64,000 nt of DNA, taken from Alphaproteobacteria bacterium (GTDB lineage Bacteria > Pseudomonadota > Alphaproteobacteria > SP197). The stretch is taken from assembly GCA_965215635.1 (NCBI GenBank), contig CBDCEA010000004.1, forward strand, positions 731,157-795,156. Reading direction: 5' to 3'. The translations under genes and the position numbers were made by a program. Position 1 is the stretch's first letter; each line of letters opens with the position of its first letter. Under the pieces are notes generated by a model. The model worked only from the letters and a program-made list of their open reading frames with translations. It was not told where the DNA came from and made no database searches. Below are positions 27,345 to 52,628 of this stretch, piece by piece.

Positions 27345-29335
27345 CCAGGGCCAATCATTGTCTGCGTATTCTGTGAGTAGGATCATGACGATACCGAAAG
27401 TCGTGGACACGTCTCCATGGAGCGGCTACAACGCCTTCCGCCCGGATCGGGAGGCGTTGTATGGATCTGTCCGAGGTCGTCGTGGAGCCGGTTGCGCCGA
27501 ACGACGAAGCGGCGTTCCGGTGCCTGATGCAGACTCATCATTATCTTGGGGCTCTGCCAAAGATCGGTGAGACGATCTGGTATTGGGCACGGTGGCGTAC
27601 GCAAACCGTGGCGTTGCTGAGCTTTTCCGCGCCGGCGCTCAAATGTGGCGCACGGGATCGCTGGATCGGCTGGGATTTCCGCATCCAGTACGACCGGCTT
27701 CATCTGATCACGGCCAACACGCGTTTCCTGATTCTTCCGGGCTGGCATCGCAAGAACCTCGGCTCACGGGTGCTGGCCCTGTGCCGCAAGCGGCTTGCCG
27801 GCGACTGGCCGAGACGTTTCGGCCATCGCGTGCTCGCGCTTGAGACTTTCGTCGACCCCAGCCGCTTCGAGGGTACCGTCTACAAGGCCGACAACTGGAT
27901 CGAGGTCGGCCGCTCGGGCGGCTTCCAGCGCTGCCGCGGCGGCTATGCCGCTGAAAAGGTCACACCCAAACTCGTCTTCGTCAAACCGCTTGTCGCCGAT
28001 GCCAGGGCGTGCCTCGGCGCACCCCGGCTGGCACAGGCCGACCATCATGGAGGTTCCAGACGCATGATCGCTGCAGACCAGATGCGGGCCCTGCCCGCCT
28101 ACTTCAAGGGCGTCCCCGATCCCCGGAAAAAGTATGGAAAGCGCTACACGATCGAGACCATCCTCGCCATCGCCAGCGCCGCAACCCTGTGCGGCATGAG
28201 CGGCTACAAGGCGATCGGCGAGTGGGCACAGGACTTGAGCCAGACGGCCCGCAAGCGCTTCGGATGCCGACGCCGAAACGGCGTCTTCCAGGCGCCCACC
28301 ACCAACACCATCCGCGAGCTCCTGATCAGGGTCGTCCCCGAAGATCTCGACCACGCCCTGGCGCGCTGGAACAAGGATAACACCTGCCACGACCAGGCAA
28401 TCGCGCTCGACGGCAAGACCCTGTGCAACGCCGTCAACGACGACGGTTCCCGAACCCATCTGCTCGCCGCCGTGGGCCACGACTCCAAGACGACCCTGGC
28501 TAAAAAAAAACGGTCCTGAAGGACGATGACAGCGATAACATCAAGAGAACCAACGAAATCGGCGTCGTCATCCCCCTGCTCGAAACCCTCCAGGATACCC
28601 TGCCGGGCACCACTATCACCGTCGATGCCCTGCTCACACAACGAAAGCTCGCACGCTTCCTCCACGACCATCACGCTCACTACGTGATGGTCGCCAAGGG
28701 CAACCAGCCCACACTCCGGGACGCCATCAAACTCTTCTTCCGAGAGCGCAAGACCCCCGACTGGAGCGAACCCGACGCCAAACCCGATCACGGACGAAAA
28801 GAGAGCCGCACAATCTGGACCACGACAGAACTCAATGACTACATCAGGGACGAAATCAAGTTCCCCCATGTCCGGCAGGCTTTCTGCATCCACCGAACCC
28901 GCACCACCGTCAAGACCGGAGAACGCGCCGAAGAACTCGTCTACGGCGTCACAAGCCTCAGCCCCGAGGACGCCGATGCAAAGCGCATTCTCGAACTCAA
29001 CCGGAAACACTGGACCATCGAAAACAGTTGTCACAACATCCTCGACACCGCATGGCAGGAAGACAAATCCTGCATCCGAAAAGGTCATGGACCTGACAAC
29101 ACCTCACGCCTCAGGCGCTTCGCAATCGGCCTCATCAAGGCACGCGGGATGGATGTCAAACCAACAACACTGCGCCTCAACAGAAAACTCAGAACCGTCT
29201 TCGACTGGTTCAAAATGACCGCCAACTCTCAGCCCCGATCCTGAACCGGCGCAACAACTCATATACCTCAAGAAACCCTCAAACTCGACATCACCAACAC
29301 AGGAACAGCAATGAAAAAGAACTGATTTGCCCTGG
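27345..29335 (+). mobile_element. ISAs1-family insertion sequence (boundaries tentative)
   Basis: Candidate imperfect terminal inverted repeats are CCAGGGCCAATCATTG (27345-) and the reverse complement of CAACTGATTTGCCCTGG (..29335). They bracket the DUF4338-ISAs1 transposase gene. Confidence 0.4.
27461..29244 (+). pseudogene. DUF4338-domain / ISAs1-family (H-repeat, DDE) transposase fusion, needs a -1 frameshift at an A9 run
   Basis: ORF 27461..28519 has the DUF4338-like blocks HHYLG, RDRWIGW, NTRFLILP, LETFVDPSRFEGTVYKADNW, then the ISAs1 N-domain DPRKKYGKRYTIETIL. The frame breaks at A9 (28502-28510). The -1 frame continues KRTNEIGVVIPLLE...TVDALLTQ...VMVAKGNQPTL...HWTIENSCHNILD (ORF 28684..29244). 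Confidence 0.75.
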
Positions 29336-36692: not shown

Positions 36693-37259
36693 TTATCCCC
36701 GCGCCACACGGCGCATCAGAAAACGGCAGGCCGCCAGGCGACACCATGCCAGAGAACTCGCAAGACTCCGCTCATAATCCTTCGACAAACGCCGGCAGCG
36801 GGACATCCAGGCAAAGGTCCGTTCGACGACCCAGCGGCGGTACAGGACCGTGAAACCTTTGATATCCTCGGGCTTCTCGATAATCTCCAAAGCCTCCCCC
36901 AACCCCATCTCGGCAAGCCGAGCCTGCAGTTTCGGGCCCTGGTAGCCACCATCCGCCCACAACTTCTCGACCGCCGGGGCCTTGTTCATCAGCTCTTCGA
37001 TCACATCCGGCGCCCCATCGCGGTCCTGAACCGAGGCCTCATGCACCGTCATCGCGATCGGCGTGCCCTCAACGTCAACCGCAATGTGCCGCTTGCGCCC
37101 CTTGATCTTCTTGCCCGCATCATAGCCGGCCGGACCGCCGCTTTCCGTCGTCTTCACCGTCTGGCTGTCGATCGCCGCAGCCGTCGGCTCCAGATCGCGC
37201 CCCGCCAACTGTCGCGCTTGCTCACCCAGCACGTCCAGCAACTTCTCCAGGACCCCACT
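36693..37259 (-). pseudogene. IS5-family transposase, C-terminal part
   Basis: ...GVLEKLLDVLGEQ...IDSQTVKTTESGGPAGYDAGKKIKGRKRHIAVDVEG...ADGGYQG...RWVVERTFAWMSRCRRLSKDYE. It joins in frame to the N-terminal part at 44344-44610 once IS21 and one copy of CCCACT are removed. Confidence 0.8.
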
Positions 37260-37781
37260 TGCGGAATCCGACGGACTTGACCAAGAATCCAATTTCACTT
37301 GAGCAAGAGTCCAATCGCACTTGAGCAAGAATCCAACGGACTTGACGCGCGCAGCGCGCAGCCTGTTGTCTCTCCGTGTTCTGTGTCGGCAACCTCTCAG
37401 TCCGTGGTTTTTGAGTGACGGCCGCAGGCCGCTTCTTTGTCAAGCACAAAGTTCCAGGGGGTGGGGCCGGACTGAACCCCTCAGTCCGGTCCGGGGCCGG
37501 CCCTGCCGCCGGGTATGGGCCTTATGAAGAGGACGCCGCAGGCGCCGACGCTTCGGCGTCAGCCGGAGCGCAGCCCCCGAGAGCGTCGCGTCGGTATCGG
37601 CCCGCGAGGCATCGATCATGGCCCCGAGACCGTTCAGCCTGGCCCGTCATCCCCGGCCAGCGACCGCGCCACATGACGCGTGCCTGTCGATCCTCCCTGG
37701 TCCTGCTGTCAAGGTCCTCTGTCGTGCAATCGAGGCGGTGGTGATGGCCTGGCTGAGCGTATGTTGGGGCTGCGCCGGGGC

Positions 37782-37793
37782 CGTTACGTAACG
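37782..37793. promoter_or_regulatory. perfect 12-bp palindrome CGTTACGTAACG (copy downstream of the small ORF)
   Basis: Read directly from the sequence. The identical 12-mer occurs at 38133-38144 and 48887-48898. Confidence 0.6.
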
Positions 37794-37859: not shown

Positions 37860-38100
37860 TCAATCGCGGCCGAAGCCCCGTGGCAGATCGAAGGATCTCG
37901 TCGAGACGCTCGGCCGTGGGCGACGCCTCGAGCGCCTTGGGTATCGCGTCGCGCCAGGCCTGCCAGGCGTTGCGCAGCGTGATGATGGTTGCGATGGCGT
38001 CGTGCCACTGTTGATGACGCGTCCGTCGGTCCCGCCTGTCGTGGACGCGTGGCTGCCGTTCGCGATATCGCCGTTGCCGTTCGACATTTGACAATGCCAT
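37860..38100 (-). pseudogene. small basic-N-terminus protein, paralog of ORF 48583..48870 (apparent +1 frame break near 37893)
   Basis: The ATG at 38100 follows AGGAGG. The product starts MALSNVERQRRYRERQ...W-x-DAIATIITL...ERLDEIL. The conserved C-terminal FDLPRGFGRD plus stop (37860) is only in the +1 frame. The uninterrupted frame would instead run on to 37522. Confidence 0.55.
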
Positions 38101-38132: not shown

Positions 38133-38144
38133 CGTTACGTAACG
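38133..38144. promoter_or_regulatory. perfect 12-bp palindrome CGTTACGTAACG, candidate operator
   Basis: It lies 33 bp upstream of the ATG at 38100. The same motif sits upstream of the paralog at 48870. Confidence 0.6.
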
Positions 38145-38204: not shown

Positions 38205-38969
38205 TCAATGTGTTGGCCGGGGATCGTCGATCGGTGGCGGCTTGAGCAGCTTGCGCCGGGATTCTCCGGTCAGGGTAATGTGGTGGCCGTAATGGACGAT
38301 GCGGTCGAGGATCGCGTCCGCGATGGTGCTTTCGCCAAGCACATTGTGCCAGGCGGACACCGGCAACTGTGAGACGATCATGGTCGAGCGCCGGGCACTG
38401 CGTGGCTCGATGAGCTCGAGGATGTCGCGCCGGCCCTGAGGCGAGAAGTTCTGAAGTCCCCAATCGTCGAGAATCAACAAATCGACCGTGGTCAGCCGGC
38501 GCATCAGCCGGATGTAGTTGGTGCCGCCCCGTCCGGCATCCAGCGAGAGCACCAGGTCCGGGACCCGGAGATAGGCGACAGAGCGGTTCTGTCGGCAGGC
38601 CTGGTTGGCGAGGGCGCAGGCAAGGATCGTCTTGCCCACCCCGGTCGCGCCGACGACCGTGAGATTGGCGCCGGCATGGATCCAGCCTCCAGTCGCGAGG
38701 TTCAGCAGCGTCGTCCGGGTGATGCCACGCCCGGCACTGCAGTCGATATCGGCGATATCGGCCCGCTCGCGCAGTTGCGCCTTGCGCAGGCGGGCGAGAT
38801 AGCTGCGGTCGTTGCGCTGCTGGCGCTCACGCTCGAGCAGCATGACCAGCCGGTCATCGAAGCCGAGTTTGGCAAAGTCCGGGCTCTCAGCGTGCTCCTG
38901 ATAGGCTTCAGCCATGCCGGCGAGCTTCAGCGAATAGAGGATTTCGACGATCGGGTTGCTCAGGCTCAT
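38205..38969 (-). CDS. istB: IS21-family helper ATPase IstB
   Basis: The ATG at 38969 (MSLSNPIVEILYSLKLAGM) overlaps the original istA stop (ATGA). Walker A is VGATGVGKT and Walker B is LLILDDWG. Confidence 0.9.
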   Translation of the reverse strand: MSLSNPIVEILYSLKLAGMAEAYQEHAESPDFAKLGFDDRLVMLLERERQQRNDRSYLARLRKAQLRERADIADIDCSAGRGITRTTLLNLATGGWIHAGANLTVVGATGVGKTILACALANQACRQNRSVAYLRVPDLVLSLDAGRGGTNYIRLMRRLTTVDLLILDDWGLQNFSPQGRRDILELIEPRSARRSTMIVSQLPVSAWHNVLGESTIADAILDRIVHYGHHITLTGESRRKLLKPPPIDDPRPTH

Positions 38970-39013
38970 GATCCGTCCTCCTCGTCGCTCCGGTAGTAGC
39001 TGCTGCCGCGGAT

Positions 39014-39035
39014 ACCATGCCGATATCGGCATGGT
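39014..39035. repeat. perfect 22-bp palindrome ACCATGCCGATATCGGCATGGT at the RIT/IS21 junction
   Basis: Read directly from the sequence. It lies between the IS21 CGGAT (39009-39013) and the RIT inverted repeat. A related half-motif TTATGCCGATATCG occurs at 42387-42400. Confidence 0.7.
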
Positions 39036-39122: not shown

Positions 39123-40118
39123 TCACAGCGCTTCGAGGAACGTCATCAGCTCGTCAGATGGCTGATACCGGCCAGAGGCCACGCCGACCGGTTTTGTCTG
39201 GTCCATTGCTTTCTCCTTCAGCTGAAGATCGGCATGGAGGTAGATCTGCGTGGTTTCGATCGACTCGTGGCCGAGCCAGAGTGCGATCACCGCGCAATCG
39301 ACCCCCGATTGGAGCAACATCATGGCGGCGGTATGTCTGAGAACATGCGGTGTGACGCGCTTGTCCTTGAGTGACGGGCACACCTTGGTTGCGAGGGCGG
39401 CGTATTTCTGCACGATTCGTTCGACCGCATCCCGGCTGAGACGGCCACCACGGATGCTGGTGAACAGGGGATCACCGTCATTACCGGGACGCTCTGTCAG
39501 CCAGGAGCGTAGTGCATCGACGCTGTCCTTCCGCAGCGGGGTCGCTCGCTCCTTTCGTCCCTTGCCCATGCACCGGACATGGGCGCCGGTCCCGAGAACG
39601 ATGTCACCGCAGGACAGGTTGATCAGCTCGGAGACTCTGAGACCGGTTTGCAGCGCGACAACCAGCAGGGTCCTGTCACGCCGCCCGAACCATGTGCTGG
39701 TATCGGGTGCCGCCACCAGCGCAGCCATTTCTACCCGGTTGAGGTAAGTGACCGTCGTCCTCTCATACTTCTTGGCCGGAATGGAAAGGACCCGATGGCA
39801 GTGATGAACAAGCTGCGGTTCATGCGTCGCGACGTATTTGAAGAACGACCGGATGGCCGACAGCCTTGTGTTGCGGCTACGGACGCTGTTGCCGCGCACC
39901 GTCTCGACGAAGCTCAGGAATCGACCAACGAGGTTTGCGTCGAGATCCTCGAACTTCAGGTCCGTCGGCATGCGGTCAAGCTGGTCGGAAGCGTAGTTCA
40001 GCAGCAAGCGGAAGGTATCCCGATAGCTCGCGATCGTATGGGCGCTCGCCCGCAGACCTACCGTGAGATGGTCGGTGAAGAACCGCTGAAGGCAGATGGC
40101 AAACGGATTACGGTTCAT
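39123..40118 (-). CDS. ritC: tyrosine recombinase, third gene of the trio (RitC-like)
   Basis: The ATG at 40118 overlaps the ritB-like stop (ATGA). It has a SAM-like N-domain and a catalytic domain with the R...HxLRH...Y layout (PHVLRHTAAMMLLQSG ... TQIYLH). Confidence 0.8.
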   Translation of the reverse strand: MNRNPFAICLQRFFTDHLTVGLRASAHTIASYRDTFRLLLNYASDQLDRMPTDLKFEDLDANLVGRFLSFVETVRGNSVRSRNTRLSAIRSFFKYVATHEPQLVHHCHRVLSIPAKKYERTTVTYLNRVEMAALVAAPDTSTWFGRRDRTLLVVALQTGLRVSELINLSCGDIVLGTGAHVRCMGKGRKERATPLRKDSVDALRSWLTERPGNDGDPLFTSIRGGRLSRDAVERIVQKYAALATKVCPSLKDKRVTPHVLRHTAAMMLLQSGVDCAVIALWLGHESIETTQIYLHADLQLKEKAMDQTKPVGVASGRYQPSDELMTFLEAL

Positions 40119-41065
40119 GACGCACCTTCCGTGTCCGCCGCCCTTTCGGCGCGTGCACACGCAAGGCGCATCAGTTCCGGGACGGCCTCCATGTACCAGT
40201 AGGTGTGAGACGGGTGCTTGTGCCCGAGATAGGTCGTGAGCTTGATCATTTCCCGATTGGGATCGAGCCCCTGACGGTACCAGGCGGTGATGGTGCGGAC
40301 GGCCATTGAGTGGCGCAGATCATGAATGCGCGGACCGCGACCCCGTTTGCCAGTCGGGTCTGCGTCACGAATGCCAATGGCCATTCCAATCCGAGCGAAG
40401 ACCGCTTGAACATAGTTGTCGCTTGGGCGCCGACCCTGCTCGTTGAGGAAGAATGGTTGTGCCCCGCGGCCGAGAATCCGGTCGCGCACGGTGCGGTAGG
40501 CGTCCAGGCGCTCTGTGGTCGAGAGCGCGATCGGGAGCAAGCGGAACTCGCTATTCTTCGTTCGTGTGATTGTCAGCACCGCCTCGTCGAGGTCGACATC
40601 GGCCTCATCCAGCCCCAGTGCCTCCCCGAGCCGCAGCCCCGTGACCGCAATCAGTCCGAAGAGGGTCGAGAAGGTCCACGCGTTCAGCCCGCGCGGTGAG
40701 GGCAGCTGCGCCGCATGCTCCACGATGCGAGCGAGCTCTTCTTGCGTGTAAATGTAGGGGCGCGGGCGTCGATTGCCGCGTCGGATCAGGTCGGCCGATG
40801 GGACTTCAGTACGTGGGTCCACGCAGTGAAGCCATTTTGCGAAGCCACGCACATAACTCAGATTGCAGCCCCAGGTGACATCGCTCGGCGCCTCGAACTG
40901 TTTCCGCCATTCCAGGAACAACTCTGTGGTGACGGACTCGGCACCGAAGTCGTCGGCAAAGGCTGCAAAGCGACGTAATACAGCGGCCGTGGTTCCTATG
41001 CGGCGGTAGCCGAAGCGGCGACGGTGATCGAGATACTGCACAACGCGATTGCTCAGAGTGGTCAT
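40115..41065 (-). CDS. ritB: tyrosine recombinase, second gene of the trio (RitB-like)
   Basis: The ATG at 41065 overlaps the ritA-like stop (ATGA). Diagnostic blocks are GLRLGEALGL, IHDLRHSMAVRTI and HPSHTYWYM. Confidence 0.8.
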   Translation of the reverse strand: MTTLSNRVVQYLDHRRRFGYRRIGTTAAVLRRFAAFADDFGAESVTTELFLEWRKQFEAPSDVTWGCNLSYVRGFAKWLHCVDPRTEVPSADLIRRGNRRPRPYIYTQEELARIVEHAAQLPSPRGLNAWTFSTLFGLIAVTGLRLGEALGLDEADVDLDEAVLTITRTKNSEFRLLPIALSTTERLDAYRTVRDRILGRGAQPFFLNEQGRRPSDNYVQAVFARIGMAIGIRDADPTGKRGRGPRIHDLRHSMAVRTITAWYRQGLDPNREMIKLTTYLGHKHPSHTYWYMEAVPELMRLACARAERAADTEGAS

Positions 41066-42318
41066 GGCAGGTCTCCCCGCGGTACGGGCCACGCCGGTGC
41101 AATCGAGCGCAATGCATCCAGGTCATAGCGGGCGTAGACGAGCGTCGTCGCACGACGCCGATGGCGCAGCACATCGCCGATCTCGTCGAAGGACGCTCCT
41201 TGGCGCAGCATCGTCGTTGCCAAGGAGTGACGGAGCAGATGGACGCCGTGACGATGCTGCGGACCTCTGAGCCCGGTCGTCGCCAACGCATCGCCGAGCA
41301 CCTGAGAGACAATGGTTCCGGTCCTGAAAGGGCGCCACGGCGCCCGGGCGGTGACGAACAAGTGACGACAGGTCCCTTTCCTGCCGTGGCGGATGTAGTC
41401 GACGAGCGCTTCCCCGACGTCAACCGGAAGTGGCATGGGGTCGTGACGATTGCCCTTGCCCCGAATCAGGATCTCGCCGGCGCGCCAGCGAATATCCTCA
41501 AGGCGGATGGCGACCACTTCCTGCGCACGAAGACCCAGCCGGCCAGTCAGCAGCAGGATCGCGTAGTTGCGGCGAGCAAGAGCTGAATCGCCTCGAACAG
41601 CATCGAGCACACGCCGAACTTCGCCCGGTTCCAGATGCACCCGTGGAGTTGTCAGGTGGCGGCGCGCAGTGCGCGATACCGTCTCGACAAGAGCGACCGG
41701 AACCCTGCCGCTCCAGTGCAGAAACCGTAGGAGATTGCGCAGCCTGGATGCCTTGGTGCGCTCTGGATACGCCCAGCGATCGGTGCGCTTTGGCACGAGA
41801 AAGGCGACCAGGTCCTCCGGCGTTATGCGGTCGGGTTGAATCGCCTCATCCACGAACCGGAAACGCATGAAGGCGTTGAAGACCCGCAAGTTGTTCTTGA
41901 CCGTTTCGTCGCTCAGCCCACGCTGATGGCGAAGCCAATCTTCGTACGCTACGCGCAGATGTCGTAGGTCGTCCGATTCTGGTGCACCCTCAGGTACAGA
42001 CGGGTCGAGAATCCCGAGCTCACAGAGATATCTGACGAATCGTCTCGCGACGGTTTTCCACAGTGCCCGCGTCTTCGCAGCTGAACCCTTTGGTGCCAAA
42101 TCCCCCAAGGTAGCAGCCGCGGTCGCTTCCAGGCTCGCAATCTCAAGACCTCGGGCTGTGAGTTCCGAACACTGGGCCCGCACAAGGCGGCCATAAACGT
42201 CGATCGTTGCAGGTGAGTAGCCTTGTACGGCGAGGCTTTCCAGAAATCCGTCACGGCTTTGCTGGAGCCAGCCTCCAGCGTTCGTCCGAGCGGCGACATC
42301 GTTGATGTGCAGTTCCAT
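41062..42318 (-). CDS. ritA: tyrosine recombinase, first gene of the trio (RitA-like)
   Basis: ORF 41062..42339, with the internal ATG at 42318 (MELHINDV) preferred. Diagnostic blocks are GLRAQEVVAIRL, VHLLRHSLATTMLRQG and TLVYARY. Confidence 0.8.
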   Translation of the reverse strand: MELHINDVAARTNAGGWLQQSRDGFLESLAVQGYSPATIDVYGRLVRAQCSELTARGLEIASLEATAAATLGDLAPKGSAAKTRALWKTVARRFVRYLCELGILDPSVPEGAPESDDLRHLRVAYEDWLRHQRGLSDETVKNNLRVFNAFMRFRFVDEAIQPDRITPEDLVAFLVPKRTDRWAYPERTKASRLRNLLRFLHWSGRVPVALVETVSRTARRHLTTPRVHLEPGEVRRVLDAVRGDSALARRNYAILLLTGRLGLRAQEVVAIRLEDIRWRAGEILIRGKGNRHDPMPLPVDVGEALVDYIRHGRKGTCRHLFVTARAPWRPFRTGTIVSQVLGDALATTGLRGPQHRHGVHLLRHSLATTMLRQGASFDEIGDVLRHRRRATTLVYARYDLDALRSIAPAWPVPRGDLP

Positions 42319-42386
42319 TGGTCGTTCCTTTCCTCTCAAGGTGAAAGAAACGAGTGGTGATCAACGAACCGCCAATCGCAACCCGA

Positions 42387-44012
42387 TTATGCCGATATCG
42401 TGTTGTGGGAAGTCCGCCGCGTCACGGCGATCGGCGGTCCACGCGGCATAATCAGGATGTCGGCATTACGGATATGCTCGTGCTCGGGCAGAACCTCCTC
42501 GTCTGGCGTCCCGCTGGCCGGCGACGGGGCACCGAGCTGGTTCTTGACGAAGCCCGTGGTAAACCGCTCGGCTGCCAGTGCGGCCTTGCAGGCCGCCTCG
42601 ATCTGTGCCGGGCTGTGAAGGTCCACCATCCGCACAACCCCGCGCAGCGTCCGGTAGGCCTGTTCCGGAAAGTCGCGGCTGGCGCGGCAACGCGCAGCCC
42701 ATGCGGAGGTCATGGGTCCGACAGCCCGTAGCTGTCCCATCATCCAGGTCTCATAGTCCGGGCTGCGTTGCTGCTTCATCGCCGCGTGCTGTGAGGGCAT
42801 GTGCTCGGCGATGGTCTGATAGGTGCCGCGACCGAACCGGCGTGGGTGTCGCGCCACAACCTCGCCGGTGCCCTTCAGGCTGATCTCGATCATCTCCGCG
42901 CTGAACTTCAGGACCACGTCATGGCCGATCCACTGCTTCGGGACCGAGTACTGATTGTACTCGAGGATGATGTGGTAGTTCGGACCGACCTTGCGTTCGC
43001 TATACTCGACATAGCTCCAGGGCCGCTCCGGCAAGGGCTGCAGCGCCGGACCATCGGATGTGGCGAACCGCTCCCAGCGGCTGACGCCGCAGGCTTTCAT
43101 CTCCTCGGCATTGAGCTTGTCAACACGCGCCTTCAAGGCCGCATTGAGGGTGTGCATATCGAAGAAGGATTCGTTGCGCAGCCGGAGCAAAACCCGGCTC
43201 TGTACCACGCCGACAGAATTTTCCACGGCGCCCTTGTCCTGAGGCCGCATCGGCCGGGCAGGGAGCACTGCGATGCCATAACACCGGGCAAAGTCAGCAA
43301 AGGTTCTGTTGAGCACGGCATCGCCGTGTGACCACTTTGTCACCGCGCTGCGCAGGTTGTCGCAAATCAACCGCCTTGCGACACCGCCGTAATATTCGAA
43401 CGCGGCGCGATGCGCCGCGGTCCACGATGCCAGGGTCTGATCGGCCACCGCCATCGCGAAGATCAAGCCGGAACAAGGCAGCACGCAGACCAGGATCTCG
43501 ACCATCTCCTGCCCTTTACGGGTCTGCAACGGCAGCGTCTTGCCAGAGAAGTCCGACATCATCCAGACGCCTGCCTCATAGCTGAAGCGCATCTCCGGCT
43601 CTTGCCCGGGCCCCTTGAGATGCTCCTTCAGCCGTCCGAAGAAGTGGCTCCGTGAATACCCCTTCAGGCCCTGCGCCCTGGCCTCAGTATAATATTCTTC
43701 CCACAACACGTCCCTCGTCACCCGTGGCGCCCGATACCCCCGCCTGGTCTTCTGATCCATCAGCACCTGCGCCACAGCCGCCAGGTCCGGCTCCAGATAG
43801 TCCGCTTTGGCTGTCTCGACTGGCGGGTAGAGAAGCCCCCGAAGATCCTCCATGGCAACACCGTCCGGCAGCGGCCATGACACCCCCGCCGTCGCAGCGC
43901 GCGCCAGAATGTTCGACACCGTACCGGTGCTCACCCCGGTGATCGTCGAAATCTCTCTTTGGGTCAGTGTTCCGCCCTCGCTCAGGCGCAGGACATCACC
44001 TATCTTCAACAT
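42387..44012 (-). CDS. istA: IS21-family transposase IstA, native 3' end displaced by the RIT insertion
   Basis: The ATG at 44012 gives MLKIGDVLRLSEGGTLTQREIS (HTH), then the DDE region. After ...LPEHEH the ORF reads through the RIT inverted repeat (IRNADILIMPRGPP...) instead of the native IRGSSYYRSDEEDGS now at 38970-39013. Confidence 0.85.
   Translation of the reverse strand: MLKIGDVLRLSEGGTLTQREISTITGVSTGTVSNILARAATAGVSWPLPDGVAMEDLRGLLYPPVETAKADYLEPDLAAVAQVLMDQKTRRGYRAPRVTRDVLWEEYYTEARAQGLKGYSRSHFFGRLKEHLKGPGQEPEMRFSYEAGVWMMSDFSGKTLPLQTRKGQEMVEILVCVLPCSGLIFAMAVADQTLASWTAAHRAAFEYYGGVARRLICDNLRSAVTKWSHGDAVLNRTFADFARCYGIAVLPARPMRPQDKGAVENSVGVVQSRVLLRLRNESFFDMHTLNAALKARVDKLNAEEMKACGVSRWERFATSDGPALQPLPERPWSYVEYSERKVGPNYHIILEYNQYSVPKQWIGHDVVLKFSAEMIEISLKGTGEVVARHPRRFGRGTYQTIAEHMPSQHAAMKQQRSPDYETWMMGQLRAVGPMTSAWAARCRASRDFPEQAYRTLRGVVRMVDLHSPAQIEAACKAALAAERFTTGFVKNQLGAPSPASGTPDEEVLPEHEHIRNADILIMPRGPPIAVTRRTSHNTISA
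42433..42473. repeat. RIT terminal inverted repeat (istA-proximal end)
   Basis: GGCGGTCCACGCGGCATAATCAGGATGTCGGCATTACGGAT is the exact reverse complement of 39036-39076. Confidence 0.85.
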
Positions 44013-44343
44013 GTCGGTTCTCCCCATCTGAACATTCCTTCTTGCTGTGAGACAAAAAGGAACAGTGCAGGACCGGGCGGGAACCGACACCACCGGCCGC
44101 AGCGCAGCCGACCTCCGAGATCGGAAAGCCAACGGAAAGTTGTCAACAGGCTGCGTTCAGGCCGCTCGACAGACCGCGCAGATGCTCCAAACCGGCCGCA
44201 TCGCCACTCGAAACCCGCTCCGAATCGGGCAGGCCTATCCGCCTCCAGTCTCCGCCAGGCCAGGCGCTACAACCGCGGTCAAGTCCGTTGGATTCTTGCT
44301 CAAGTGCGATTGGACTCTTGCTCAAGTGCGACTGGATTTTGCA

Positions 44344-45673: not shown

Positions 45674-46351
45674 TCACCTGACAGGTTCGCTCACGACGGG
45701 TGTCGATGAGCGCACGAACTGGACCGACGGCAGGGGGTAGCGCTTGAGGATTGTGTTCATCCGGTCCCAGTTCAGGCACCGGCGGCGGCTGCGGCGTAAG
45801 AGCCACTTCCGCCAGGTGCGAGCGACCTGGTAGCGGAACCACTCCAGACGTTTGCCGTTGCCCGTCAGACCATAGTAGGCGTTGTGGCCCCGGACCACCC
45901 GAACAAGGTAGTCATGCTGCGCCTTGATCGGCAGATGCCGGTGGCTCTTGCACCAGTCGTGTACCGATTTCAGCGCGCGGGCGAAGCGGCCTTTCGCCGT
46001 AATCTGGCGAACGACGTCCTTGCCTCGCAGCGACCGCCCCCAGACGTGGGTGAAGCCGAGGAAGTCGAACGTCGTGGCCGATGCCATCCGGTGACGCCCG
46101 TAGGGGCGCCTCCGGCGGAAGTCCACATAGCGCGTCTTGGTCTCATGGAGCGTGAGCCCGTATCGACCGAGACGTTTGCCCAGCACGTCAAGCAGACGCT
46201 TGCCGCTGTGGCGGTCTTCGAAGGCAACAACAAAGTCATCAGCGAATCTCACCAGCTGGCAGTTGCCGCGCAAGCGCGGCCTCGCCTCGTCCTCGAACCA
46301 CTTGTCCAGCACATGGTGCAGGAAGATGTTGGAGAGAATCGGCGAGATCAC
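45674..46351 (-). pseudogene. group II intron RT/maturase, C-terminal part (from ...SPILSNIFL)
   Basis: It matches the tail of ORF 4218..5126 exactly. The upstream part of ORF 45674..46552 is read-through from the inserted element. Confidence 0.85.
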
Positions 46352-48002
46352 TCCCCGAACGCAATAGATAGTTTCCCGCTTTGTTCCTGCCGCTGTCAAG
46401 TCCGGATCCGTTTTGTCCGTTCTTTTGCGGTGTCTTCGGGATCGGGATCGAGTGACGGATTGTGATTGCATCGTCGTCCACCAGGACGTCCTTGACGAGC
46501 AGCCTGACAATCCGTTGGCGTTCCGCGACATCCATGGTTTCGGCGCTCTCACGCAACAGGGCGAGGAAGCTTGTCAAAGTCTCGGTGAGTTTCAGCCAGA
46601 CTTCCTTTTCTCGCGCCTGATCGATGACGGACTGCCATTCGGCATCGACAGCCTTTTCCTGTCTTCGCAACGCGGGCATTCTCGCGCGCAGCTCATCGAT
46701 TGTGATCAAGTCTTCCTGATAGACCTGAAGCAGACGATCGATCGCCTTGCGGATACGGGCCAGGTTTCGGTCGAGTTCCTGTTCGCGCCGTTGGGTCGGG
46801 TCGCTCCGGCGTGCTGTTTCAAGGCGTCTTGCGATCTCGACTTCGATCAAGGCGGGATCCTCAAGCAGGCGGATGACTTCGGTCCAGACGACCTCATCGA
46901 GCAGATCCTGGCGCACCGGACGGTTGTCGCACACCGGTCCATTGAAGTGGCGCCAGGCGTCGGACCCCAGACAACGCAGGTAAAAGATCTTGCGGGTGCT
47001 CGTTCTGGTTGATGTGCGATAATATGCATAGCCACATTTGCTGCACGACACCAGGCCCTGCAGGAGGCTTGGTGTCCTGGTATGGCGTTTGGACCATAGC
47101 TTGTTCTGTGCCAGTTTCTCCTCGGCAAGAGCGAAAGTCGTTTCGCTGATGATGGATGGCACCGGGATCTCGATCCACTCCTCCCGGGGCCGCTCATGAT
47201 TGGCACTGTTGCGCTTCGCGATCCCGCCGCGCTGACGTATCGGTCGCGTCACGCGCTGGCGCGGCGCCGTTCGTGTCTTGCCATAAGAGGCTTTCCCCTT
47301 ATAGGCCGGATTGCGCAGGATCGCCCACACCACGGAGCGCTCCCAGCGTGCCCCTCCCTTGCGTGTCGGCACAGCCCGTTCGTTCAACGTGTGGACAATG
47401 GCACCGATGCTCATGTGATCGACGGTATGGTATCTGTAGATATCGCGGACCACCGACGCCTGAGGTTCAATGACTTCGTACCAGGCGTCACTTTCGGCTG
47501 TCTTCTTGTGGTACCGGTAGCCATAGGGCGCCCCTGAAAGGATGCTGACCTCGCCGCGAAGCGCCCGATGGCGCTTGCCACGCCTGGACCGCTCAAGGAT
47601 CTGTGCTCTCTCATATTCTGCAATCATGCCCTGAAACTGCACGACAAGCCGGTCTTCGGGCGTGTCCTGCGACGGTGCCTTGATGAAACGGCATTCAACA
47701 CCGTTGCGCGCAAGTTCCTCAATGATAAGAACCTGATAGGCATATTTTCGGCTGAGACGGTCCGGTGAATGGACCAGAACCGCTTCGATCGACCCTTCAG
47801 CCGCAAGATCGCGGATCCGCTCGAGGCCTGGACGCTCCAGTATGGCACCGGGAAAGCCATCATCCTCGATGACCATGTCTTCGGCGACCCGAAAGCCGTT
47901 GCTCTGCGCGAAGTCGGTCAGCGCCGCGGTCTGGCTGGCAATCGTGTTGCTCTCCCTTTGCTGGTCTCCCGATACCCGGGCGTAGATGGCCGCTATCTTC
48001 AT
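46239..48002 (-). CDS. large serine recombinase
   Basis: The 587-aa ORF starts MKIAAIYARVSGDQQ (catalytic Ser), then DRLSRK, a recombinase domain, a zinc-ribbon-like CSKCGYAYY...CLGSDAWRHFNGPVCDN, and a coiled-coil. There is no stop inside the element, and the last ~36 codons come from intron DNA. Confidence 0.9.
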   Translation of the reverse strand: MKIAAIYARVSGDQQRESNTIASQTAALTDFAQSNGFRVAEDMVIEDDGFPGAILERPGLERIRDLAAEGSIEAVLVHSPDRLSRKYAYQVLIIEELARNGVECRFIKAPSQDTPEDRLVVQFQGMIAEYERAQILERSRRGKRHRALRGEVSILSGAPYGYRYHKKTAESDAWYEVIEPQASVVRDIYRYHTVDHMSIGAIVHTLNERAVPTRKGGARWERSVVWAILRNPAYKGKASYGKTRTAPRQRVTRPIRQRGGIAKRNSANHERPREEWIEIPVPSIISETTFALAEEKLAQNKLWSKRHTRTPSLLQGLVSCSKCGYAYYRTSTRTSTRKIFYLRCLGSDAWRHFNGPVCDNRPVRQDLLDEVVWTEVIRLLEDPALIEVEIARRLETARRSDPTQRREQELDRNLARIRKAIDRLLQVYQEDLITIDELRARMPALRRQEKAVDAEWQSVIDQAREKEVWLKLTETLTSFLALLRESAETMDVAERQRIVRLLVKDVLVDDDAITIRHSIPIPKTPQKNGQNGSGLDSGRNKAGNYLLRSGSDLADSLQHLPAPCAGQVVRGRGEAALARQLPAGEIR

Positions 48003-48136: not shown

Positions 48137-48466
48137 TCAGCCATGTCGACGCGTGCCCCGCAAGAACGCCGCCAGAGCGCGCGACACGATCGTGCCCATC
48201 GAAAGGCCGCTGCTCGTAGCGTGGGCACGCAACGCATCGACCACGCTGCGTGGAAGCTTGAGGGTGACCGCGACCGGTGTTTCCGGCACCTCCGCCGGCG
48301 CGCTGATCGCCTGGGCTTCGCGGACGTAGCGATAGGCTTGACGTTGCGACAGATCGCACTGTTTCGATAATCTTTCGACAGCTTCGGTGCCCGTGCATCC
48401 CTCGCTCAGCATCCTGTAGGCCGTATTGAGCAGTTGCGCTCTGCGCATGTGTGTCGATCGCGCCAT
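48137..48466 (-). CDS. small DNA-binding protein (N-terminal HTH-like, C-terminal ribbon-helix-helix-like)
   Basis: The 109-aa ORF has ...TGTEAVERLSKQCDLSQRQAYRYVREAQ then VAVTLKLPRSVVDALRAHATSSGLSMGTIVSRALAAFL (RHH pattern). Its stop overlaps an ATG (ATGGCTGA) of a further short ORF that leads into the recombinase start. Confidence 0.6.
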   Translation of the reverse strand: MARSTHMRRAQLLNTAYRMLSEGCTGTEAVERLSKQCDLSQRQAYRYVREAQAISAPAEVPETPVAVTLKLPRSVVDALRAHATSSGLSMGTIVSRALAAFLRGTRRHG

Positions 48467-48582: not shown

Positions 48583-48870
48583 TCAGTCCCGACCATAGCC
48601 TCGCGGTGGCGTGACAGCCTCCAGCTCTGAAAGGTCGAGGGTGCAGATGATGTCAAGGAGCTCTCCCGTCGCCGAGTCATGGAGCGTCTCGGGAACCATG
48701 TCGTACCAGTCCCGATACTCCTGCTGAAGACGGACAAGGGTCTCAACGGCGTCCGTCCAGCGCCTGTATCGCGGACGCCGGTCTTGCGGAGATCCCGCCG
48801 GAACCGGCTTTGCCAAGGCCTTGCGTCGGTCCCGAAAACGTTTTTGCCGTTCAGCATTGGTAAGGGCCAT
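48583..48870 (-). CDS. small protein with a bZIP-like basic N-terminus (first gene of the element)
   Basis: The 95-aa ORF has GGAG 8 nt upstream of the ATG. The product is MALTNAERQKRFRDRRK...RRWTDAVETLVRLQQEYRDWYDMVPETL...PPRGYGRD. A paralog lies at 37860-38100. Confidence 0.65.
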   Translation of the reverse strand: MALTNAERQKRFRDRRKALAKPVPAGSPQDRRPRYRRWTDAVETLVRLQQEYRDWYDMVPETLHDSATGELLDIICTLDLSELEAVTPPRGYGRD

Positions 48871-48885
48871 GGTTCATACTCCGGT

Positions 48886-48899
48886 CCGTTACGTAACGG
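48886..48899. promoter_or_regulatory. perfect 14-bp palindrome CCGTTACGTAACGG, candidate operator
   Basis: It lies 17 bp upstream of the ATG at 48870, just upstream of the SD. The core 12-mer is identical to 37782-37793 and 38133-38144. Confidence 0.6.
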
Positions 48900-49059
48900 G
48901 TGTTGTTTGAAGTTCACGCATCCGAATTGCAAACTCACGATGGCGCATGATCAGTCTCGGAACGCCGTCTCCGACCTTTTCTGCAATCCTTGACCGGATG
49001 ACTACGCCATCCCACGATCAAGCGTTCGAATAAAAAGTTATCTCTTGCGTTCGGGGAGT

Positions 49060-49707
49060 GATCACCCCACCCTGGGGTGTGCCAGCGACCGGCCTGTGCA
49101 CGGTGCCCTCTTCGAGCACCCCCGCTTTCAGCCACTTGTCGATCATGCGCCTTACGACGCCGTCCTTGATCCGCAGGTCGAGGAAGGACCGCAGGTGGGT
49201 GTGCGAGATCGAGTCGAAGTACGACTTCACATCCGCATCGATCACCCACCGTTGGCGCTGCTCGATGATGCCCGCCCGAAGGGCCTTGAGGGCATCGTGA
49301 GCCGAGCGCCCGGGCCGGAAGCCGTACGAGCACGGTAGAAAGTCCGTCTCGTAGATCGCCTCCAGCAGCATCAGGATCGCCCGCTGCGCCACCTTGTCTT
49401 CGAACGTCGGGATGCCCAGTGGGCGTTTCGTGCCGTCCGCCTTGGGGATGTAGTGGCGTCGCACCGGCGGCGCGACGTAGCGGCCCGACTTCATCCGGTC
49501 CAGGAGGTCGTTGAGATTGGCCTCAAGGTCCTTCTCGTAGTCGGCCGCCGTCACGCCGTCGATGCCTGTCGCCCCATCCTTGCGCGTCCGGTGGTACGCT
49601 TCGTGCATCCACGCGCCGTCGATCAGATGGTGCAGGGACGTGAACACCCGATCCGGATGCTCCCTCGCCTGTTCGGCTATCCACTGCTGTTTCGTGTACG
49701 TGTTCAT
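49060..49707 (-). pseudogene. group II intron RT/maturase, N-terminal part (to ...GTPQGGVI)
   Basis: ORF 49018..49707 is identical to copy 1 and is intact across the copy-1 frameshift site ([16 protein letters not shown]). It then runs into the inserted element. Confidence 0.85.
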
Positions 49708-50464: not shown

Positions 50465-52628
50465 ATGACGGCGGCGGGCCCTGTTCCGGGCGCGGGCGGC
50501 CTTGCGGTTGCTTGTCCGTCTGGCGCTCCGGAGGTCTGGCCCCGGCTTCACGAGGAAGAGAAGCGCCGCGGATGCTGCGGACGGGCGTGCCGAACGGCTC
50601 AAACGGGAGAAGGTCCAGGCGCACCGCGAGGCGCGGTACTGGAAAGCGCAGTGGGGTCGGGCCCGGAACGCGCTCGAGGCGGCGCGTGCGGAAGCGGAGG
50701 ACTTGCGCCGTGTGTCGAAGGATGCGTTGCATCTGCGCTCGGAGGTCGATCGTCTTGAGACGCTTCTTGCCGCCATCGGTGTCGATACGCGCAAGCGCAG
50801 CACGATGGCGTCCCTGCGGATCGAGAACGGCCGGTTGCAGGCCGGGAGCGAAGCCCTGGGCAAGCGGCTGCAGGAGGTCGAGAGCGAGCGTGACGGCCTG
50901 CGCTCGCAGGTTGAGACCCTGTCGCGCGCGCAGTTCGGTCGCAAGAGCGAACGGGGCCACAAGGGTACGGGCCACAAGGGTACGGGCCGCAAGACGGGGC
51001 CGGACGACAAGGGGAAGACCGGCAAGCGCGGCCCCCGGCCCGGTGGCGAGACCCACGGGCGCACGCCGCGCCCCGAACTGGCCCGCGAGAGAGAGGTTCA
51101 CGACCCGCCGCCCGAGGCGTTGCACTGTCCGTGTTGCAACGCGCCCCGGGTGGCCAACGGATCGCATACCTCGGATCTGATCGAGGTCGAGGTCAAGGCT
51201 CATGTGCGGGTCATCGACCGGAGCCGCTGGCGCAAGACCTGCCAGTGTTCTGACACGCCCGAGGAGGTGTCGGCGCCACCGGTGCCGCGCCTGTTTCCGA
51301 GGACCATGTTCGGTATCAGCGTCTGGGCGCGTCTGCTGTTCGAACTTTACGCCGCCAACCGTCCCTTGCGGCGGGTCGCGGCGTGGTTCGAGGCGCAGGG
51401 CCTGCCAGTCTCACCGGGAACGCTTTCAGACGGGCATGACCGGATGGTGGCGCTGTTTGCGCCGCTGTCGGCGGCGATCCTTGCGCATCTCCAGCAGGCG
51501 CCGGTGGTGCATGCCGACGAGACCACCTGGAGGGTCCGGGAGTTCGCCACGACGGGCTCGTCCAGCCGCGCCTGGCTGTGGATCGCGACCTGCGTGGATG
51601 CGGTGTATCTGCATGTCGATGCATCGCGCAGCGCGGCCGCCGCCGCGACGCTGCTCGGCGGGCTGCGCAAGGGTGCGGTCCTGGTATGCGATCGCTATAG
51701 CGCCTGCAAGAAGCTGGCCCGCCTGGCGGCGGGCCGGCTGGTCTTGGCGTTCTGCTGGGCCCATGTCAGGAGGGATTTCATCAAGGTGGCGGCGGCGCGT
51801 GGCGACCTCGAGGACTGGAAGGACCAGTGGCTGAGCCGGATCCGGCGCCTGTACAGGCTGAACGCCAGCGCTTGCGCTATCACGATCCCGGCAGGCCGTC
51901 CGGCAGGAGGAGGTCTGAGGATGCAATTCCGTCTGTCCCGCGTCCTCGGGGAGGTCTTCACGGAGGCGGAACGGGAACTTGCCACCTGAACGTCGCCGCA
52001 GGCAGCGTCTCTTGCGTGAGGGCTGTCTCATCACGATCCCGGCGATGGGCCGTCCGGCAGGAGGAGGTATCTGAGGATGCAATTCCGTCTGTCCCGCGTC
52101 CTCGGGGAGGTCTTGCCCCCGCGGAGGCGGAACACCGGACTTGTCCGCTGATTGAACCGCCGGCTGCACCGTTGAAGCCACCGGCCATCAAGCTTTGATC
52201 CGCCGGACGACGTCGCCGCAGGCGAAGGTGTTGCGGTCTCTGCATGAATCATCGTGAAGGGCTGTCTCAGGTCCTCGACGATCTCCGTGTTCCGATGGAC
52301 AACAATCTCGCTGAACGCCAACTCCGCCAACCCCGTACGAGGCCAGGTCGCTCGACGAATTCTCCGTGCGATGGGTTGAACGCCGTTCCGCCCTGAGGTC
52401 ATCCGCCGGAAGCTGTCGCTGGGCTCGGACAGCAAGGAGGGCGCGCAGGGCATGGCGAAGATGCTTTCGGTGGTCCGCACGCTTGAGGTCAACGACATTG
52501 CGGTTGTGCCGTGGCTCGAGGCGTGGCTGTCCGCCTGTGCCGCCAATGGCGGCCGTCCGCCGGAGGATCTCGGGCCGTGGCTGCCCTGGACAATGGACGA
52601 GGCGCGCCGGGCAGAGTTTCGCGCGTGA
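50465..52628 (+). pseudogene. IS66-family transposase (TnpC-like), multiple frameshifts and an internal duplication
   Basis: ORF 50502..51989 has a coiled-coil/zinc-finger N-terminus (HCPCCNA) and the DDE region (HADETTWRV, VCDRYSACKK, FCWAHVRRDF). The C-terminal blocks PMDNNLAER and ...GMAKMLSVVRTLEVNDI...WLEAWL are in other frames and end at the TGA at 52626-52628. Confidence 0.8.
51880..52269 (+). repeat. imperfect tandem duplication inside the IS66 transposase gene (units about 151 and 239 bp)
   Basis: Both units start TCACGATCCCGGC...GTCCGGCAGGAGGAGGT(A)TCTGAGGATGCAATTCCGTCTGTCCCGCGTCCTCGGGGAGGTCTT and end ...GTCGCCGCAGGC...GGGCTGTCTCA (51880-52030 and 52031-52269). Confidence 0.7.

Follow-up and report, generated by a model that had tools for sequence, protein, structure and literature searches.

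The 64,000-nt stretch of an alphaproteobacterial contig analyzed here (the window) contains, at 48583..48870 of its minus strand, a short open reading frame (ORF1), which leads a small serine-recombinase element. ORF1 encodes a protein of 95 amino acids that starts with MALTNAERQKRFRDRRK and has the full sequence MALTNAERQKRFRDRRKALAKPVPAGSPQDRRPRYRRWTDAVETLVRLQQEYRDWYDMVPETLHDSATGELLDIICTLDLSELEAVTPPRGYGRD. An earlier sequence-only reading proposed that this protein is a self-operator-binding regulator of a mobile element, and direct reading of the DNA found the gene and its signals largely as described there. A Shine–Dalgarno (SD) sequence GGAG (48879..48882, minus strand) is located 8 nt before the ATG, and a perfect, operator-like 14-bp palindrome, CCGTTACGTAACGG, composed of two abutting CGTTAC half-sites, lies upstream (48886..48899, strandless). 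The distance between the palindrome and the ATG is 15 nt rather than the 17 bp stated earlier, and the distance between the palindrome and the SD is 3 nt. The ratio of nonsynonymous to synonymous substitution rates (dN/dS) of 0.19, determined against a relative with 77% amino-acid identity, identifies ORF1 as a real gene on which purifying selection acts.

The ORF1 protein has a modular architecture in its AlphaFold2 (AF2) model, which reached an overall predicted local distance difference test (pLDDT) score of 82.7. Residues 5-19, NAERQKRFRDRRK, are predicted to form an N-terminal basic helix (pLDDT about 75), residues 20-33 a proline-rich basic linker that is non-helical in the model, and residues 34-95 a compact, well-packed helical domain (pLDDT above 90), which ends with PRGYGRD. 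The prolines at positions 22, 24, 28 and 33, together with the end of the modeled helix at residue 19, agree with the earlier statement that no heptad zipper follows the basic stretch. An a/d pattern (W38, V42, L45, L48, Y52, W55) is present in helix 34-58, which is, however, separated from the basic helix. The sequence-only reading also compared the N terminus with the basic regions of Pap1/Yap-type basic leucine zipper (bZIP) factors, and the spacing indeed matches that of Pap1 at the N, Q, F and R positions (PDB 1GD2; PMC7144946). When the AF2 model was compared by Foldseek with PDB and BFVD, no match at E < 0.05 was obtained. An assignment to a known non-bZIP fold, which would have spoken against the comparison, was likewise not found by Pfam, Foldseek (PDB and BFVD), PHROGs and PDB profile searches.

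A word-indexed search retrieved only 18 relatives of ORF1, while a profile searched exhaustively against 1.84 billion representative proteins returned 2,203 clusters at E <= 1e-3, and a profile search of a 5.8-billion-protein set at least 6,724 clusters at E <= 1e-5. The DNA upstream of the homologs was surveyed in 174 loci (143 family genes, 855 kb), using the 90 bp upstream of the AERQ motif. The data showed that CGTNACGTNACG is present in this interval in 114 of the 143 genes, at a density of 8.9 per kb versus 0.058 per kb elsewhere in the same loci, which is an approximately 150-fold difference, and versus about 0.001 per kb by chance. The enrichment that the sequence-only reading had set as its test was thus strongly positive. 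The only columns conserved across clades are the 12-mer, with the architecture CGT-X-AC/GT-X'-ACG and an ACGT-type center, and the GGAG located 4-5 nt after it. As a negative control, none of the 23 phage homologs consisting of the C-terminal domain only had the site upstream. One could argue that the resemblance and the association reflect chance or an inherited linkage devoid of function, because many loci are copies of one insertion sequence (IS), which makes the counts non-independent. However, the site is conserved over 37 clusters from several phyla, at about 50% protein identity and with flanking DNA that cannot be aligned, and within the window the 12-mer CGTTACGTAACG occurs three times versus 0.02 times expected from dinucleotide-preserving shuffles. 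Hence, we consider such a coincidence hardly credible.

The sequences of the sites and of the proteins covary. Ten bases of the 12-mer never change, and in each half-site the variation is confined to the fourth base, X, of CGT-X-AC. This base follows the residue located just before AERQ, N5 in ORF1, which corresponds to the bZIP Asn position. Counted as half-sites, with the numbers of 80%-identity clusters in parentheses and with some inflation of the counts by shared ancestry, Asn was found with X = T 59 (12), with G 4 (4) and with C 1 (1); Asp with T 14 (4), with G 69 (8) and with C 0; and Gly with T 5 (3), with G 0 and with C 7 (4). The main pairings are therefore Asn with TTAC, Asp with TGAC and Gly with TCAC. 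An Asn located inside the Asp clade (L157) is accompanied by the site TTACGTAA, that is, by TTAC, and two unrelated Gly lineages (L058; L049 and L145) carry TCAC half-sites. The aromatic position, F12 in ORF1, also follows the site type. Cys is found only with TGACGTCA, in 14 (4), and Phe only with TTACGTAA, while Tyr is found with any type. Asymmetric hybrid sites are common. In protein–DNA recognition in general, Asn reads an A:T pair, and Asp reads the C of a G:C pair. The observed residue–base pairings are chemically sensible.

The location of the site relative to promoters bears on whether it works as DNA or as RNA. In the plasmid clade whose proteins start with MGLSN (L009, L011, L063) the site fills the 18-nt spacer between TTGAC(A/G) and TACAGT or TACGGT, which are near-consensus -35 and -10 boxes, just before the ATG. 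In two further loci (L170, L171) TGGACA is followed by a 17-nt spacer containing CCGTTATGTAACGG and by TACAAT, 6 nt before the ATG, and L172 and L173 have an analogous promoter-spacer layout with CGTAACGTTACG. Since the site in these leaderless genes is placed between the promoter elements, it is not transcribed there. This is relevant to the proposal that the N terminus is an arginine-rich RNA-binding motif of the lambda N or Rev type, and that the palindrome is a hairpin in the 5' untranslated region serving translational control or antitermination. The N-terminal arginine-rich peptide of ORF1 does resemble such RNA-binding peptides; in most clades the site precedes the SD by 4-5 nt, within the likely transcript, and in IS21 elements it is located between the istB stop codon and the SD. 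On the other hand, two clades have the site in the untranscribed -35/-10 spacer, the stem positions never covary, the stem would be merely 4-5 bp long, and the asymmetric hybrids would put a mismatch into it. The promoter-spacer placement, the ten invariant positions and the frequent asymmetric hybrids thus favor a duplex-DNA operator over an RNA hairpin, which we regard as improbable.

The element led by ORF1 consists of three genes. ORF1 is followed on the minus strand by a gene for a 109-amino-acid protein (48137..48466), which has a weak C-terminal ribbon-helix-helix (RHH) match (RHH_1, E = 0.009, below the Pfam cut-off), and by a gene for a large serine recombinase of 587 amino acids (46239..48002) with Resolvase, Recombinase and Zn_ribbon_recom domains. 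The alignment to an intact Rhizobium group II intron showed that the element is a 2,714-bp insertion within such an intron, and that it interrupts the intron reverse-transcriptase (RT) gene within the GGVI(S/T)P codons. Its left end (attL side, 46346..46371, strandless), GATCACTCCCCGAACGCAATAGATAG, is an inverted repeat of its right end (attR side, 49038..49063, strandless), TTATCTCTTGCGTTCGGGGAGTGATC, and joining both ends gives a perfect 30-bp palindrome, GCGTTCGGGGAGTGATCACTCCCCGAACGC, which is how the attP of a serine recombinase should look. The recombinase reading frame crosses the attachment site (46239..46355 and the 49054 region), so that the protein has 587 amino acids in the integrated form and would have 593, with a different tail, in the circle. 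The closest relatives of ORF1 (77-99% identity) are found in the identical three-gene order, likewise adjoining group II intron RT fragments. The order of ORF1, the RHH-like gene and the recombinase gene, with ORF1 in the lead, is that of a conserved operon. Relatives of the element occupy the same RT site in other metagenomes, with their arms covaried to GGGGCGTCATGACGCCCC. Judging from these insertion sites, the 2.7-kb mini-element appears to target group II introns specifically. The IS-rich island in which the element is located (about 27-52 kb of the window) also holds a DruA-like protein with DDE_Tnp_1_assoc and an IS66-family transposase (27461..28519 and 50502..51989), and it is bordered by ordinary metabolic genes, including those for penicillin amidase, an AMP-binding enzyme and solute-binding proteins.

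The same island contains a second gene of the family, at 37863..38100 on the minus strand, with the start MALSNVERQRRYRERQ. It is the third gene of an IS21-family element and is located directly downstream of istB (IstB_IS21 ATPase, 38205..39032, minus strand), while istA is found at 42387..44132. Three tyrosine recombinase genes in a row (39123..42339) separate istA from istB and split the element, and this insertion looks like a recombinase-in-trio element. The sequence-only reading had pointed to a second pair of protein and site near position 38100, and the gene start and both 12-mers noted there are indeed present, but the paralog is not intact. Near position 37890 it has lost about 14 codons and its frame has shifted, with residues 1-76 in one frame (38100..37891) and DLPRGFGRD in another (37889..37863). 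It is about 14 residues short relative to its homologs, and it has an A6V substitution at an otherwise invariant position. The C-terminal PRG[FY]GRD described earlier as conserved is thus found in ORF1 and throughout the family, but because of the frameshift it is out of frame in the paralog, which by its reading frames is evidently a pseudogene. One copy of CGTTACGTAACG (38133..38144, strandless) is located between the istB stop codon and the SD of the paralog, which is the standard place in IS21 elements with this gene. The third copy (37782..37793, strandless) lies about 70 nt downstream of the paralog and is not followed by a gene of the family; it may be the operator of a lost module. A fragment of an IS5-type DDE transposase is found beyond this copy (36693..37328).

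The paralog exemplifies the most frequent setting of the family. The 80 best genome hits are all metagenome-assembled genomes (MAGs), and the hosts include Alphaproteobacteria, Spirochaetia, Binatia, Chloroflexota, Acidobacteria and Actinomycetota MAGs. Among 80 metagenome loci, the upstream context was istB in 48 and an IS110 transposase in 16, and a serine recombinase was nearby in three, which bears out the mobile-element setting proposed in the sequence-only reading. In IS21 elements the order is istA, istB, the palindrome, the gene and IS21-type terminal repeats, and the whole repeated unit is 3,190 bp long (L023 1344..4533). This third-gene position, inside the unit and between istB and the multi-repeat right end, holds for the paralog and most homologs; ORF1 itself is not in an IS21 element. 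In another MAG the gene follows an IS110-family transposase inside a 1.84-kb repeat (L039 2777..4612). The gene is multicopy, with more than 20 copies in one alphaproteobacterial MAG. Proteins annotated as fusions to an IS110 transposase or to IstB were rejected as functional clues, because they are read-through gene calls that mirror the gene order and not real fusions.

These contexts could also be taken to mean that the neighboring ISs use the palindrome as a target of recombination or insertion, or that it marks the boundary of a cassette, and that the protein is unrelated to it. In the Spirochaetia loci the similarity between copies starts at or near the palindrome, differing IS families are found upstream of it, and sites flank the window paralog on both sides. 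However, the site and the gene are placed well inside the repeated IS21 and IS110 units, the covariation links the site to the protein, and the homologs with only the C-terminal domain do not have the site. We consider this explanation very improbable.

Another possibility is that the protein binds the palindrome, yet not mainly as a transcriptional repressor, and is instead an architectural or recombination directionality factor of the Xis-like kind, or a copy-number or immunity factor. The constant company of recombinases in the contexts counted above would fit such a role, as would the invariant C-terminal PRG[FY]GRD, which looks like a docking motif. It would also fit that the site in IS21 elements is found only at the gene itself, which leaves the benefit for the element unexplained. 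An operator at the left end of IS21, in the istA promoter, was looked for and not found. On the other hand, the site is about 590 bp away from the IS21 end and about 155 bp away from the attachment-site end in the window, and hence outside the recombination sites, and in two clades it is located inside promoters. Moreover, the gene is present on a 4.9-kb plasmid with a PriCT-type Rep and no recombinase (L011, a Binatia MAG contig assembled as a concatemer). Of the four exact sites of this plasmid, three immediately precede small ORFs and one is beside a terminator-like hairpin, and from this arrangement the set looks like a small regulon. A role mainly in recombination, copy number or immunity is therefore unlikely in our view. 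As to the benefit of an autoregulated gene for an IS, one could speculate that it controls read-through where circular or tandem copies are joined.

None of the resources examined contains a description of the family. Scans of ORF1, the paralog and the homologs against Pfam, NCBIfam and PHROGs gave no named family, with weak PHROG matches only to the N-terminal motif or to phrog_4068, and a DUF222 match (E = 0.064) was judged too weak to be meaningful. Among the family clusters of the 5.8-billion-protein set no Pfam domain and no name beyond "hypothetical protein" was found, tblastn against PLSDB plasmids and INPHARED (GenBank) phages gave no match, and a literature search with the motifs, the palindrome and the IS21 third gene found nothing relevant. 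The databases and literature searched thus agree with the earlier remark that no bacterial family with this combination was known. Most of the proteins begin with either MALTNAERQ... or MPRGRKPxGxxALSNAERQARYRAR..., and PRG[FY]GRD is placed at the very C terminus in all members. The long N-terminal variants (e.g., L016 3965..4288) open with MPRGRKPxGE, about nine residues ahead of the basic helix, and their PRGR(K)P, as a sequence motif, resembles an AT-hook. A KPGRK motif is found upstream of the basic regions of Yap1 and HapX (PMC7144946).

Several loci have unusual arrangements of the gene or its site. Two natural proteins (P0032, P0066) carry two tandem C-terminal domains per chain, an arrangement that would be consistent with dimer formation by this domain; when P0032 was modeled by single-sequence AF2 as a proxy of the dimer, the pLDDT was 49 and the model was unusable. 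Just upstream of one homolog, L002 463..717 encodes an 84-amino-acid protein with a similar basic stretch, EAQRLANQKSYRKHRDR, which may be a second basic-helix protein. On a 194-kb contig, near a relaxase gene, the first two-thirds of a homolog gene are tandemly duplicated (L001 5798..6297), and the opposite strand carries a second, divergent homolog with its own near-palindrome (L001 7704..7943). In L086 and L089 the palindrome, the SD and the start of the gene are duplicated by a repeat of about 148 bp, located some 150 bp before the gene, which results in two tandem operators.

The closest resemblance of the basic helix is to the fungal Pap1/Yap1/HapX proteins. In the Yap/Pap1 subtype the signature is NxxAQxxFR, of which N, Q, F and R are the base-contacting residues in Pap1, and these factors bind TTAC half-sites (TTACGTAA), while Gcn4 binds TGAC (PMC7144946). 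The Pap1 basic region, KRKAQNRAAQRAFRKRK, and the Pap1 sequence QNRAAQRAFRKRK were checked against the structure of Schizosaccharomyces pombe Pap1 (PDB 1GD2). The ORF1 segment N5-A-E-R-Q9-K-R-F12-R13 matches the bZIP N-x7-R signature, with Q9 and R13 invariant and N5 variable in the family, and it shares with Pap1 (N-R-A-A-Q-R-A-F-R) the spacing N-x3-Q-x2-F-R-[DE/K]-R-[KR] through N5, Q9, F12 and R13. A bZIP dimer recognizes two adjoining half-sites of 4-5 bp around an ACGT-type center, and the conserved site of the family has this architecture. The cognate site of Pap1 consists of abutting TTAC half-sites, and the site of ORF1 contains GTTACGTAAC; additionally, the residues at the Asn and Phe positions track the half-site type in the ORF1 family. 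ORF1 differs from Pap1 in that a proline-rich linker and a globular helical domain replace the leucine zipper continuous with the basic helix, in that Arg is found in place of Ala at N+3, and in that its family is found in bacteria, on mobile elements.

The basic region of GCN4 is N-T-E-A-A-R-R-S-R-A-R-K, and it has N, E, R, R, A and R in common, in register, with the family consensus N-A-E-R-Q-A-R-Y-R-A-R-R. The members of the family with TGACGTCA sites have Cys where CREB and Jun, which belong to the GCN4/CREB/AP-1 type (N-x2-A-A-x2-[CS]-R; TGAC half-sites), also have Cys. In contrast to this type, they have Asp and not Asn at the key position, in addition to the differences from Pap1.

Among bacterial proteins, the literature search for comparable cases returned only RptR and, through a citation in the paper on RptR (PMC12255303), an older claim of a leucine zipper in TodS. 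RptR, a bZIP-like repressor of a defense island and the nearest published bacterial analogue, is like ORF1 a small, all-helical protein encoded by the first gene of a mobile island; it is a homodimeric autorepressor without a long zipper, and its short palindromic operator overlaps its own promoter (PMC12255303). It differs in that it recognizes a 6-bp TAGCTA via the internal helix alpha4, has no N-terminal basic arm, and is associated with Type I restriction-modification (R-M) systems of Gammaproteobacteria (PMC12255303). RptR is unrelated to ORF1 in sequence, and in the structural comparison of the two neither Foldseek at E < 1 nor a profile search gave a PDB match. The C-terminal domain, SRxxRW...LQxEYxxWxDNLPENL...LP[LR]GFGRD, also occurs in phage proteins of 80-110 amino acids. 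These phage relatives (L176-L199, on 35-120-kb viral contigs of IMG/VR), which were found with the family profile, match phrog_4068 with E down to 9e-15, whereas the family members themselves match it weakly (E = 0.012-0.33). The phage proteins are encoded in early or replication-type gene neighborhoods, and they differ from the family in having neither the N-terminal AERQ basic helix nor the palindrome. A further parallel, which is a logical analogy, is that with R-M controller (C) proteins and other first-gene autorepressors, in which a small dimeric regulator bound to a palindromic operator sets the level of a downstream enzyme; C proteins are helix-turn-helix proteins, and their sequences and sites are unrelated.

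Taken together, ORF1 is probably a small sequence-specific DNA-binding regulator, which uses a bZIP-like basic-helix read-out and autorepresses its operon; the enrichment of the site upstream of homologs and the covariation support this proposal of the sequence-only reading. Two copies of the protein would bind CCGTTACGTAACGG just upstream of their own gene, with the N-terminal basic alpha-helix (T-N-A-E-R-Q-K-R-F-R-D-R-R-K) of each copy inserted into the major groove at one of the CGTTAC half-sites. The second base pair of T-X-A-C would be read by the residue at the Asn position, and the Phe/Tyr/Cys position and the next Arg would be arranged in the bZIP register. The helical C-terminal domain (34-95), connected via the proline-rich basic linker, would hold the two copies together, and the binding would lower the transcription of ORF1, the RHH-like gene and the large serine recombinase gene. 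The association of gene and site, the residue–base covariation, the modular architecture and the mobile-element context are observed features of the family, from which we infer the dimerization, the docking in the groove, the repression, and a role for the host elements (IS21, IS110, serine-recombinase elements and small plasmids).

Several observations weigh against this model. Both the binding to DNA and the repression are predicted from comparison. ORF1 had no match to Pfam bZIP_1 or bZIP_2 at E <= 10, and hhalign against a small bZIP alignment that included Pap1 and HapX gave insignificant probabilities, 0.3% with the full profile and 0.7% with the N-terminal motif, even though in the latter Q9-R15 was placed on QRAFRKRK of Pap1 in the register of the sequence-only reading. 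None of the PDB searches, whether the query was the profile of the family, the peptide from the N terminus or the profile of the N motif, retrieved a bZIP or any other meaningful match. The profile comparisons suggested in the sequence-only reading thus revealed no significant bZIP similarity, and a basic region continuous with a heptad zipper in a single helix is absent from ORF1, as seen from the AF2 model and the prolines. Hence, ORF1 is an analogue and not a detectable homolog of bZIP proteins, lacking both significant similarity and a contiguous zipper, and because the sequence resemblance is insignificant, the argument is founded on the site and the covariation and not on homology. The flexible linker between the basic helix and the putative dimerizing domain means that the chopstick geometry of bZIP proteins is not guaranteed. 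The Asn position, which is invariant in bZIPs, varies in the family; Asn was also paired with X = A in two clades, and the shared ancestry mentioned above affects the covariation counts. Finally, a consensus promoter scan found no sigma-70 consensus promoter at ORF1 or at the window paralog, and since IS21 elements have no site at the istA end, a control of the transposase in these elements is unsupported.

The recognition of abutting half-sites by a bare basic helix, in the style of bZIP proteins, is regarded as a eukaryotic invention. It is possible, although we put this forward tentatively, that the family described here is the first large one in prokaryotic mobile elements to recognize DNA through a bZIP-type basic helix, which would occupy the same groove register and follow a similar residue-to-base code but be attached to a non-zipper dimerizer. 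If this is true, the code would assign T to Asn, G to Asp and C to Gly at the Asn position, and TTAC to Phe or Tyr versus TGAC to Cys. The basic-region read-out would then be either far older than eukaryotes or invented twice, and the specificity of a compact module of about 20 residues could be reprogrammed by single residues. A family of thousands of proteins with a natural residue-to-base code at bZIP positions offers a testable case of convergence or deep ancestry. As to the mobile elements themselves, many IS21 and IS110 elements carry this gene as a third one that had not been recognized, and in a small serine-recombinase element, which appears to be directed at group II introns, it is the leading gene. 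This prompts one to ask why a DNA-binding protein that would regulate its own gene is carried by insertion sequences.

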